Of a stretch of 64,000 nucleotides of DNA, positions 37,747 through 39,482 are shown piece by piece. The notes beneath the pieces are model-generated. The model saw only the letters and a list, made by a program, of their open reading frames with translations. It was not told where the DNA came from and made no database searches. Location: the NCBI GenBank assembly GCA_963819815.1, contig CAWFXL010000001.1, positions 1,120,001 through 1,184,000 on the forward strand, read 5' to 3'. Numbering within the stretch: the stretch's first letter is position 1; every line of letters begins with the position of its first letter. The position numbers and the translations under genes were made by a program. This DNA is from an uncultured bacterium. Its GTDB lineage: Bacteria; Babelota; Babeliae; Babelales; Babelaceae.

Positions 37747-37905
37747 CGTGTAGTTAAAGACCCGTATAATAGCTAAGAAGGAATTGTAGTATATATTACG
37801 AGTCCTTAACTAACACTTTCTTACAAGCAGTGCCTCACCATATAGGAAGTCTAATAACTATTGAAGGGAGAGAAAGATAGTTATTAAAGCTACACTAACT
37901 AGGAA
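37747..37905 (-). ncRNA. Putative structured small RNA, copy 1 of 3
   Basis: Two hairpins with CU-rich loops; stem mismatches are G-U only on the minus strand; TAGAAT -10-like box just upstream; ends approximate. Confidence 0.55.
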
Positions 37906-38299
37906 GCAATTCTAAGTTTCTACGAATTTTGCCTAAAAAACAACAGTTTATCTTTCGCAACATTATAAAACAACACAAAAACTGCTATTTCCAGGCGACT
38001 ATTTCCAAAATAACGTATTTTTATTGTAAAAGCAACCACAAAGCAACAAGATTTACCTCGTGCGCTTTCTCATCATTGAAACAATATACAACCAACATCT
38101 CCGCCAAAGTTTTCTACCTGAACGACTACAGGGTGTCTAGCTGTTTTTAACATCACTTGGGTATACCAGTTTTAGGGTTCCCCTATATCAAAAGAGGATG
38201 ATTGCTTGGCCTTAAGAAATCTCACCTGAAGGCATTTTTTCTAAGGCAACTTTGGAAATAGGATGGGATTATGGGGCGAGAAAGAGATGGTACTAAGAT

Positions 38300-38461
38300 C
38301 GTGATAGTTAAAGACCCGCAAATAGCAGCTAAGAAGGAATTGTAGTATACATTACGAGTCCTTAACTAACACTTTCTTACAAGCAGTGCCTCACTATATA
38401 GAAAGTCTAATAACTATTGAAGGGAGAGAAAGATAGTTATTAAAGCTACACTAACTAGGAA
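38300..38461 (-). ncRNA. Putative structured small RNA, copy 2 of 3
   Basis: Near-identical to copy 1 over about 200 bp (38300-38505). Confidence 0.55.
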
Positions 38462-39051
38462 GCAATTCTAAGTTTCTACGAATTTTGCCTAAAAAACAAC
38501 AGTTTAGTTCCTGCATCGTCAAGCAACAACATAAAAAGGTGGGTACCTACGAGCATTTTTGTCCTTTGGAGTATTTTTTTGCACAAAACAACCTCTTAAC
38601 AACGCTATGTTGCTGCAGAAAAAGCTCCATGATTCTTCTTAAGACAGAGAAACACGGATCAAAAGTTCCCCAACGATGCCTTGTTGTACATCTAGGATAT
38701 TAAGAAACACCTATTACATAAACAATCAAGATCCAGAAAAGTTGAAGGATGAGACTTCAAAATGAACAGCATCTGACAATTTCATCATAGCTTTCTATAA
38801 GAGCTTATGTGATTGCACAAGTCTGCCTGTTTTTCTATGCCTTTTTAATGAGGCCTTGTATCGTCCACAAGGTTGTACAGATCTTTCATGTAGAAAGATA
38901 TAGATTGTAAAAGGGCAATACCTCAATAGAAACGGGTCTAGAGATGCACAACATGTACATAAAAAAATTTCATCGGTTACACAAGCCGATATAAACAAGA
39001 GCAATATGTCATTAGGTGGAAAATTCAGTGAGGTGGCTGATACTTTAAGAT

Positions 39052-39211
39052 CGTGTAGTTAAAGACCCGTTAAATAGCTAAGAAGGAATTGTAGAATAAT
39101 TTTAACGTACGAGTCTTTAACTAACACTCTCTTACAAGCAGCTTCTTTAGAGGAAGTTTAATAACTATTGAAGGGAGAGAAAGATAGTTATTAAAGCTAC
39201 ACGCTATCAAA
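39052..39211 (-). ncRNA. Putative structured small RNA, copy 3 of 3 (most diverged)
   Basis: Stems and loops conserved, linkers diverged; two G-U pairs become A-U. Confidence 0.55.
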
Positions 39212-39482
39212 GCAATTCTAAGTTTCTAGTAATAGTGCACAAAAAACAACAGTTGGTTTTAGAGCACACACCGCAACAACAAAAAGGAGCCTTAGTTTTC
39301 GTTGTTTTTTAAATAGTTGGTCTTTTTCTTGTAAAAACAACCACTGCGCAACAAAAATACCTTTTGCGCACCACTAGCCGCACTTTCTTTCGAATGTGCT
39401 CATTTGTAGAATGTATTCGTAAACCTGTTTGGAACTCAAACAAGAGGGGTCGTGGACAAATCTTGTTGTGTATCACACACTA

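Follow-up and report, generated by a model that had tools for sequence, protein, structure and literature searches.

Three tandem copies of a predicted base-pairing small RNA beside infB in a member of the Babeliales, and a predicted unlinked partner RNA that complements its apical loop

Background

We report the analysis of a 1.7-kb gap between the genes nfo and infB in a 64,000-nucleotide stretch of DNA (hereafter the window) from an uncultured bacterium of the order Babeliales (assembly GCA_963819815.1, contig CAWFXL010000001.1, positions 1,120,001 to 1,184,000 of the forward strand). The gap holds three direct copies of an element of ~205 bp each, which an earlier note on the window had read as a family of sibling structured RNAs. 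In the present work, we consider it likely that the copies represent three sibling genes for a small RNA (sRNA) that acts in trans through base-pairing. One loop of this RNA, here named (a), would pair with a conserved partner RNA, here named (b), encoded elsewhere in the same genome. The Babeliales belong to the Dependentiae (TM6), which are widespread obligate intracellular bacteria of protists, almost all of them represented by metagenomes only. Papers on the genomes and the ecology of the Dependentiae were found and, in the portion of the literature that our search returned, none on their small, non-coding or regulatory RNAs.

Results

Three copies in the nfo-infB gap

A BLAST search of the element against its own genome places the copies at 37741-37950 (100% identity), 38294-38506 (95%) and 39046-39254 (83%) of the window, a repeat search of the window recovers the same three blocks, and the mean column identity of the three-copy alignment is 89%. 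The three copies of about 200 bp described in the earlier note are thus recovered by each of these approaches, and its description of the gap as lacking credible genes also holds, as the open reading frames (ORFs) found there are all short (40-73 aa). The source genome (G000; 1.64 Mb in 2 contigs, 88% complete) has no further copy of the element by BLAST. The sole other match in it is an exact 22-nt stretch of the apical motif described below, at G000:C1:1001108-1001129, which lies outside the window and ~157 kb from the sRNA copies.

Strand and fold of (a)

The minimum free energies (MFE) of the minus strand, computed with ViennaRNA, are -50.8, -51.7 and -44.0 kcal/mol for copies 1, 2 and 3 (z -6.8, -6.7 and -4.6, from 100 mononucleotide shuffles each), against -37.7, -36.2 and -39.4 kcal/mol (z -2.7, -2.4 and -3.2) for the plus strand. 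On the minus strand the domains run, from 5' to 3', as a closing stem P1, a hairpin HP1, a linker and a second hairpin, HP2. A set of 101 non-identical homologues out of 90 genomes was assembled, in which RNAalifold recovers HP2 with 15 pairs, all 15 of them showing double compensatory changes. Summed over the HP2 pair table of these homologues, G-U/U-G pairs number 165 and A-C/C-A combinations 28, and it is because of this imbalance that the minus strand of the window is taken as the RNA strand. At closer range, the consensus of 22 sequences from the genus and two sister genera has 35 pairs (7 in P1, 11 in HP1 and 17 in HP2) with double changes in 10 of them, for example an HP1 pair that is UA in 13 sequences and CG in 9. 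HP1, being variable in length, was missed by the order-wide MAFFT alignment and was confirmed at the level of genus and family. A structure supported by covariation on one strand, as expected of a trans-acting base-pairing sRNA, is therefore present, and we regard (a) as a predicted structured RNA that is read from the minus strand of the window.

This agrees with the earlier note, which had argued for a minus-strand RNA under structural selection on the ground that the mismatches in the stems are A-C on the plus strand but G-U on the minus strand. Both the sequences and the pair table bear this out, including the two positions at which copy 3 has A-U pairs where copies 1 and 2 have G-U. The minus-strand folds also reproduce both hairpins as they had been drawn, and the RNAalifold analysis with homologues that had been suggested as a check yields the fully covarying HP2 described above.

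The same note had kept an alternative, in which the plus strand is transcribed and its purine-rich GGA loops act as a CsrA/Rsm sponge. Extended to the partner, this reading would make (b) a CsrA-regulated leader with the same binding site. Both plus-strand loops do hold A(A/G)GGA-like motifs, the same 20-mer lies over the Shine-Dalgarno (SD) sequence of (b), and tandem multicopy genes are typical of Rsm sponges. The strand test nevertheless goes against it, since the plus stems carry A-C where the minus stems carry G-U (28 against 165) and the plus fold is the weaker one, and CsrA (PF02599) was found in 0/10 genomes of the genus in a search that detected it in control genomes. GGA loops on the transcribed strand together with CsrA were thus not found, and the direction of the differences between (a) and (b), described below, is likewise not what a shared protein site predicts. 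A CsrA sponge is in our judgement highly improbable.

Anatomy of the three sRNA genes

The coordinates of the domains, together with those of the neighbouring genes, are collected in Table 1. As an RNA, (a) would run from 5'-GCUUC through HP1 with its CU-rich loop and the segment GAAGCACUGCUU to HP2, with the loop UACUACAAUUCCUUCUUAGC, at the 3' end. The predicted boundaries give 167 nt, close to the ~160 nt of the earlier note; to place the 5' end we used the promoter spacing, which the alignment of 101 sequences shows to be conserved, and the 3' end was put at the end of the extended HP2 stem. The linker and loop 2, the apical loop of HP2, are the most conserved parts of (a). Apart from loop 2, only two columns are invariant, both in the linker (C130 and T131), which also has several columns that are at least 90% conserved. 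The loop sequences that had been called invariant are exact in all three copies, save that the apical motif of copy 3 differs at its 19th base.

Table 1. Predicted features of the three copies of (a) and their neighbouring genes (positions in the window)
Feature	Position	Strand	Remarks
sRNA copy 1, ~167 nt, predicted	37741..37907	-	MFE -50.2 kcal/mol
sRNA copy 2, ~170 nt, predicted	38294..38463	-	95% identity to copy 1; same fold, -51.1 kcal/mol
sRNA copy 3, ~168 nt, predicted	39046..39213	-	83% identity to copy 1; same fold, -44.0 kcal/mol
HP2, copy 1	37751..37812	-	arms 37751-37764 and 37799-37812
HP2 arms, copy 2	38305-38318 / 38355-38368	-	equivalent to copy 1
HP2 arms, copy 3	39056-39069 / 39110-39123	-	equivalent to copy 1
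HP2 apical loop (20 nt), copy 1, RNA UACUACAAUUCCUUCUUAGC	37772..37791	-	predicted pairing site for (b)
Apical motif, copies 2 and 3	38328-38347; 39077-39096	-	copy 3 differs at 19th base only
HP1, copy 1	37850..37889	-	11-bp stem, 15-nt CU-rich loop CUUUCUCUCCCUUCA at 37862-37876
HP1 loop, copies 2 and 3	38418-38432; 39169-39183	-	identical to copy 1; plus-strand TGAAGGGAGAGAAAG
Single-stranded linker (part), copy 1, RNA ...GGCACUGCUU...	37825..37832	-	order-wide consensus GUAUGGUUAGAAGCACUGCUU
Promoter-like region, copy 1	37915..37943	-	-35 TTGTTT (37938-37943), 17-nt spacer, -10 GAAACT (37915-37920)
Promoter-like regions, copies 2 and 3	38471-38499; 39221-39249	-	equivalents of copy 1
nfo (deoxyribonuclease IV), convergent neighbour	36880..37734	+	NCBIfam TIGR00587, E 2.7e-91
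infB (IF-2), upstream neighbour, same strand as element	39483..41663	-	NCBIfam TIGR00487, E 1.1e-170
nusA, precedes infB	41672-42763	-	NCBIfam TIGR01953

The loops are CU-rich and anti-SD-like on the transcribed strand, as had been claimed. The HP1 loop reads CUUUCUCUCCCUUCA in the source genus and ACUCCUCCU or similar in other families, while the 3' end of 16S in the source genome is ...GGAUCACCUCCUUUC. The ACUCCUCCU loops of the other families resemble the anti-SD sequence, and the loop of the source genus (CUCUCCC) resembles it loosely.

The promoters and the ends of the transcript are likewise predictions. The putative start is a G lying 7 nt past the -10 element, at 37907, 38463 and 39213 in copies 1-3, and the TTG of the -35 element and the A..A.T of the -10 element are at least 90% conserved among the 101 homologues. 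The TAGAAT that had been taken for the -10 box is probably not one, as it lies between the better conserved GAAACT (37915-37920 in copy 1) and the predicted start.

Conserved T/G-rich blocks are seen upstream of the promoter-like regions, at 37949-38060, 38505-38560 and 39255-39480 of the window and at homologous loci. One of them, the TGTTGTTGC block, lies roughly 45-60 nt upstream of the predicted start, at a distance that varies between genomes, and TGTTGC-N6-GTTGTTTT is found farther upstream, with a spacing of about 11 bp. These blocks could be regulator binding sites, a UP-like element or part of a longer precursor.

Two further observations concern the surroundings of the gap and the assembly. 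The 736-aa ORF upstream of nfo (34457-36667, minus strand) has no NCBIfam match at E <=0.001. The second contig of the source genome, C2, measures 39,507 bp at 43.0% GC, similar to that of the chromosome, and may be a plasmid or an unplaced piece.

Family status, distribution and genomic position

With Rfam 15 at gathering thresholds nothing was found in the whole window besides a tRNA at 14347-14419. In E-value mode the region 37600-39500 gave 8 matches, all far below gathering (best 19.2 bits, E 2.4), and six (b) loci gave a single match (E 0.73). The element thus reaches the threshold of none of the families of Rfam 15, among them those of LhrC, RsaE/RoxS and CsrB/Rsm. The Infernal/Rfam comparison that the earlier note had named as a check of its undescribed family thus leaves that claim standing, and we put (a) forward as a candidate for a previously undescribed RNA family.

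Within the genus, the other genomes all have the element (9/9), and several sister genera have it as well. A search of the order with the 20-mer of the apical loop (<=2 mismatches) matched 106/261 genomes, with 2 hits for the reversed-pattern control; by family, the matches comprise f10 10/10, f15 5/5, f17 2/2, f3 1/4 and f21 69/80, with f1 and f12 matched in part. A covariance model of the linker and HP2 found the RNA in 44 of 151 sampled genomes. A 15-mer of the linker (<=2 mismatches) matched 188/261 genomes and is uninformative, since its reversed-pattern control matched at a similar rate. Tandem siblings are confined to the source genus, where there are 1-4 copies, and elsewhere the gene is single. 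The earlier picture of a multicopy sibling family is therefore correct for the three copies of this locus and has to be amended for the family as a whole, which is spread through the Babeliales and usually single-copy.

The genomic position was compared in 51 loci, taking ~1.5 kb on each side of the element, several of the loci coming from the same genomes. nfo and/or infB is adjacent in 48 of them (nfo in 41, infB in 35 and both in 28), and the infB/nfo position is common to five families of Babeliales. From these 48 loci we conclude that, while the five families diverged, the gene kept its place just downstream of nusA-infB and stayed on their strand.

A position of this kind could also mark a processed 3'-UTR, a read-through product or a terminator region of nusA-infB, and the pairing with (b) may hold in that case too. 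Three observations would suit such an origin: all the families examined have the element on the infB strand and downstream of that gene, the scan for consensus promoters and terminators called no strong one, and the spacer between infB and (a) is filled with conserved TGTTGTTGC-type blocks. What makes us think it unlikely is that the -35 and -10 elements are conserved at sigma-70 spacing upstream of the structure, that the promoter-like block is repeated at each tandem copy in the genus, and that the covariation of HP2 and the co-evolution of its loop with (b) exceed what the role of a terminator calls for. Processing from an infB read-through transcript would leave the result on trans-pairing unchanged.

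The partner RNA (b)

In the source genome (b) is found at G000:C1:1001110, unlinked to (a). In RNA sense it reads GCUAAGAAGGAAUUGUAGUA, and its nt 1-20 take in both the SD sequence AAGGA and the spacer between that and the start codon. Among 93 non-identical (b) loci, the motif runs straight into ATG (81/93) or GTG (11/93), followed by AAGC, and in all 93 the motif is preceded by a TTGnnn-16..18-TAnnnT pattern that stops 7-10 nt short of it. This pattern was met in 2/93 control windows taken downstream and in 83/1860 shuffles. A 27-mer form of (b) (<=3 mismatches) was found in 104/261 genomes of the order, with 0 hits for its control, and the counts per family of the (a) motif and of (b) are identical in 6 of 7 families, the seventh, f1, having 14 against 12 of 40. 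A (b)-type match also occurs in the complete-genome record AP025250.1. The one exception to a single (b) is G185, a genome of family f21, in which (b)-type loci lie at both C2:421673 and C6:38179, while (a) is single.

The first 12 nt of (b) have at least 6 of their bases paired with downstream sequence in the MFE structure in 89 of the 93 loci, the predicted partner of the 5' end being a downstream CCUU(C/U)UUAGC-like segment. Beyond its promoter, its 27-nt initiation region and this self-pairing segment (b) conserves nothing.

Downstream of (b) in three genomes (G000, G006 and G033) there is a convergent PLD-like gene and then a tamB-like gene, and in a fourth (G038) the next gene downstream is co-directional. 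The labels PLD-like, tamB-like and, below, rluD-like were read from sequence and not from profiles. This layout of the neighbours, together with the promoter pattern of its own, leads us to predict that (b) is a free-standing short transcription unit. The convergent arrangement was noted at L004 (1589-2209 and 2222-3022) and also at L019 and L030, and in three other genomes (b) follows closely after an rluD-like pseudouridine synthase gene.

A short ORF, a sequestered SD sequence and antisense pairing at the initiation region are shared by the known type I toxin-antitoxin systems, and the question arises whether (b) encodes a toxic peptide whose translation is held back both by the 5' fold of (b) and by (a). 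The resemblance lies in the short ORF and strong initiation region of (b), in the predicted sequestration of its SD sequence by the downstream anti-SD segment and in the pairing of a trans sRNA over ~20 nt of that region. The coding part, however, does not behave as a toxin gene: the ORF varies from 4 to 69 codons, many of them having 4-9, M-K alone is conserved, and the codons after AUGAAGC mirror the anti-SD segment of the RNA and not a peptide. The two loci are, moreover, ~157 kb apart here and apart or on different contigs elsewhere, so that neither a conserved hydrophobic toxin ORF nor an antitoxin at the same locus is found. We consider a type I system very unlikely.

Pairing of (a) with (b) and its co-evolution

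Because (a) is transcribed from the opposite strand of the shared motif, its apical loop is the perfect complement of nt 1-20 of (b). Scanning the whole genome for duplexes gave -31.4 kcal/mol for (b) and -21.4 kcal/mol for the next site outside these genes. If the two RNAs pair, a single change should be tolerated only where it turns a Watson-Crick pair into G-U (in plus sense, b=G/a=A or b=T/a=C), and differences the other way round lead to A-C mismatches. No such direction is expected of a DNA site or a protein-binding site that the two loci share. We compared loop and partner in the 90 genomes that have both RNAs (104 copies of (a)). The single differences comprise 101 that are wobble-compatible, at 19 different positions, 6 transitions of the mismatch type, five of them at position 20 and the sixth, from G109, at position 17, and 27 transversions, of which 21 fall at positions 19-20 and the six interior ones all in G214 and G215. 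Reduced to 47 unique haplotype pairs over positions 1-19, the ratio of wobble to mismatch-type to transversion is 60:1:7, and counted as distinct position-by-base events it is 18:1 (sign test, p = 7.6e-5). The non-pairing linker served as a control for mutation bias: changes from its consensus are A>G+C>U in 75 cases and G>A+U>C in 71, against 75 and 19 in loop 2.

At positions 3, 5, 10, 12, 13 and 17 both sides have changed with Watson-Crick pairing kept, and the same holds for positions 9, 14 and 17 in family f12, where the motif has drifted most. Two f12 genomes (G035 and G060) have no mismatch, a third (G071) pairs over positions 1-17 and a fourth (G059) over 1-11 and 13-17. In addition, seven hits of the covariance model keep the linker GUAUGGUUAGAAGCACUGCUU and a long plain HP2 and lack the 20-nt loop (G022 L318, G014 L322, G019 L324, G076 L327, G083 L329, G031 L323 and G195 L326). 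A degenerate (b) pattern gave no match in the first five of these genomes, and in G031 and G195 its only hits have 3 mismatches and are at odds with the local loop; in G031 the control scored one hit as well. Joint presence, joint change and differences of the kind that a duplex tolerates together lead us to conclude that the loop and (b) evolve as the partners of an RNA duplex. Complementarity to an unlinked RNA, kept in evolution, is a further mark of a trans-acting base-pairing sRNA, and the comparative evidence shows the predicted pairing of the HP2 loop with nt 1-19 of (b). The proposal that the CU-rich loops pair with ribosome-binding sites is in this way carried forward in part, in that the apical loop complements the SD region of one co-evolving partner, which the earlier note had missed.

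The pairing does not extend as a general feature to AUGAAGC (positions 21-27 of (b)). Pairing of this segment with the 5' end of (a) (GCUUCAU) was considered and set aside: some families have it, but it is absent in g101 and g143 and partly in the source genus.

The direction of the differences also bears on a mobile or repeat element, such as a miniature inverted-repeat transposable element (MITE), or att-like recombination sites, as the nature of the locus instead of RNA genes. A repeated sequence with internal inverted repeats in a gene-free gap, with a 20-mer of it at a second locus, has the appearance of one. Dispersed copies with target-site duplications, by which a MITE would be known, are not found: there are three tandem copies and the (b) site only in 1.64 Mb, and no duplications. 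Against such an element, too, are the infB-nfo position, fixed across five families, the compensatory changes in the stems and the arrangement of (a) and (b), whose distance and orientation to each other vary between genomes, while a directional wobble pattern is inexplicable at the level of DNA. We give this explanation hardly any credence.

RNA-binding proteins and other candidate targets

Domains of Hfq and ProQ and the RNase III domains PF14622 and PF00636 were not found in the source genome by searches that detected them in control genomes. In view of the missing RNase III matches, joint degradation of the two RNAs by that enzyme forms no part of our proposal. A system that does without a chaperone and relies on a long perfect duplex would suit a cell in which Hfq, ProQ and CsrA were not detected.

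The best mRNA-like site for loop 2 is G000:C1:1321652-1321675 (L335), with 14 nt of the motif followed by GAGGGAGA and ATG. This site, which is outside the window, belongs to the 5' leader of an ORF of 439 aa whose N-terminus is hydrophobic (a putative signal peptide), and the leader could bind both loops of (a). As a conserved mRNA target of loop 2 it was rejected, since the protein was found in 2/10 genomes of the genus only (G000 and its nearest relative, G001).

Discussion

Proposed mechanism

The three copies are, on our reading, probably sibling genes of a trans-acting sRNA with a dedicated partner, and the following course of events may be proposed. Each copy of (a) would be transcribed from its own promoter-like region downstream of nusA-infB. 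In the RNA, P1 would enclose HP1 in a 5' domain, which the conserved single-stranded linker would join to HP2, and the HP2 apical loop UACUACAAUUCCUUCUUAGC would form a 19-20-bp duplex with the extreme 5' end of (b). In free (b) the 5' stretch is predicted to pair with the downstream CCUUCUUAGC-like segment, leaving AAUUGUAGUA..AUG in the loop. Since the loop of (b) is complementary to the 5' half of the loop of (a), a kiss followed by strand invasion is the likely path, in which UACUACAAUU of the (a) loop would kiss AAUUGUAGUA of the (b) hairpin loop and would then displace the anti-SD segment of (b). The outcome would be steric masking of the ribosome-binding site of (b), mutual titration of (a) and (b), or both; we infer this path and this outcome from the predicted folds.

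As to what (b) is for, we tentatively favour a decoy that sets the level of free (a), because (b) conserves its promoter, its 27-nt initiation region and its self-pairing segment only. That (b) acts instead as a target, by way of its mini-ORF, is possible, and that it is something other than a decoy or a target we hold to be rather unlikely. The strict ATG/GTG-AAG-C, which pairing leaves unexplained, suggests that the start of (b) is really used by ribosomes, and this counts against the decoy. The HP1 loop and the linker are conserved where (b) is missing, and (a) must therefore have at least one function that is independent of (b), plausibly the masking of SD sites of mRNAs.

A bolder reading, which we consider improbable, makes (a) and (b) a translation-linked RNA switch peculiar to the Dependentiae that would report spare initiation capacity. 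In such a switch (a), encoded just after the gene of IF-2, would carry two mimics of the 16S anti-SD region, and (b) would be a 'model mRNA start' with an optimised SD-AUG-AAG and an expendable ORF. (b) would be contested between ribosomes and (a), and leftover (a) would mask the SD sites of real mRNAs.

Points that weigh against the proposed sRNA and its pairing

Several points tell against the sRNA with a dedicated partner and have to be set beside the evidence above. The main weakness is that the expression, abundance and ends of both RNAs are deduced from sequence; a search for sequencing runs that contain the region gave 5 DNA runs, with small shares (0.05-0.18), and no RNA run. At neither locus did a consensus scanner return any of the proposed promoters or a terminator, and the tail after HP2 is weakly U-rich, nothing more. 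Since the genomes are related, the raw counts of loop-partner differences overstate the number of independent events, the conservative count being the one by distinct events. Two loci bound to keep the same sequence would account just as well for the changes seen on both sides of the duplex, and the tests that discriminate between pairing and shared sequence are the wobble asymmetry and the strand test only. The three interior transversions in each of G214 and G215, and the mismatch-type transition at position 17 in G109, do not sit well with a duplex, and the conservation of AUGAAGC in (b) is left unexplained by the pairing of loop 2. The 5' hairpin of (b) is of moderate strength, with a mean duplex energy of -10.15 kcal/mol against -8.43 kcal/mol for shuffled sequence, and it beats its own control in 71 of 93 loci; its SD sequence, moreover, is predicted to be masked both in the free and in the bound state. 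For the HP1 loop, 73 sites have at least 11 consecutive pairs (G-U allowed), ~12 of them at the starts of ORFs longer than 180 aa, and these form a list of SD-like matches without background statistics, a lead only. Finally, as the source genome is 88% complete, the proteins that were not found in it are not proven absent.

Comparison with known systems

Several known systems resemble (a) and (b) in part. RoxS/RsaE is reportedly an Hfq-independent RNA with C/U-rich, single-stranded anti-SD motifs, whose activity is set by a second non-coding RNA that pairs with it. (a) is like it in its CU-rich motifs of anti-SD type, in that no Hfq was found and in that a second RNA pairs with it. It differs in having no sequence or Rfam relationship to that RNA, in that the pairing site of (b) is a complete mock translation-initiation region at the 5' end, and in the length of the duplex, 19-20 bp and nearly invariant across the order. 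In Bacillus subtilis the second RNA is RosA, reported as an RNA sponge of RoxS/RsaE (PMC8216469).

The tandem sibling genes with CU-rich loops also bring to mind the LhrC siblings. LhrC of Listeria and other multicopy sRNAs have CU-rich loops that are thought to pair with ribosome-binding sites. Unlike LhrC, (a) has no Rfam match, is multicopy in one genus only (1-4 copies) and single elsewhere, and carries a main loop of 20 nt with one dedicated partner in place of a short UCCC-type seed. With CsrB/RsmY/RsmZ it shares multiple small RNAs with repeated hairpin loops related to the SD sequence, whereas its transcribed strand carries the anti-SD sense and not GGA, and no CsrA was found.

CopA/CopT, RNAI/RNAII and hok/sok exert antisense control through loop-loop kissing, the fold of the partner masking its own SD sequence. 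The likeness is close, in that the long hairpin loop of (a) is fully complementary to the loop and 5' region of its partner, covering the SD sequence, and that the fold of (b) is predicted to mask that sequence. Those RNAs are, however, encoded in cis, on opposite strands of one locus of a plasmid or a toxin-antitoxin system, whereas (a) and (b) are chromosomal and unlinked, and encode no conserved protein.

Conclusions

Base-pairing sRNAs are a known kind of regulator, and what is new here is the unstudied phylum and the orphan partner with its 'mock initiation region'. (a) would be the first RNA regulator for the Dependentiae, and one with a named partner, to be recognised by comparative sequence analysis alone. 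The wobble signal, directional over ~90 genomes, is in effect a mutagenesis experiment done by nature, and a new Rfam family could be started from the alignments and the covariance model. (b) is unusual as an orphan transcript whose sole conserved part is a translation-initiation region, and it makes decoys in the form of a 'mock mRNA start' testable. The constant linkage to infB is a lead towards the control of translation, and if the improbable switch should prove to be real, it would be a protein-free translation feedback in a reduced intracellular genome in which no Hfq, CsrA, ProQ or RNase III was found. For these bacteria, a genome in which no known RNA chaperone was detected would appear to keep a system of long RNA-RNA duplexes under strong selection throughout the order.

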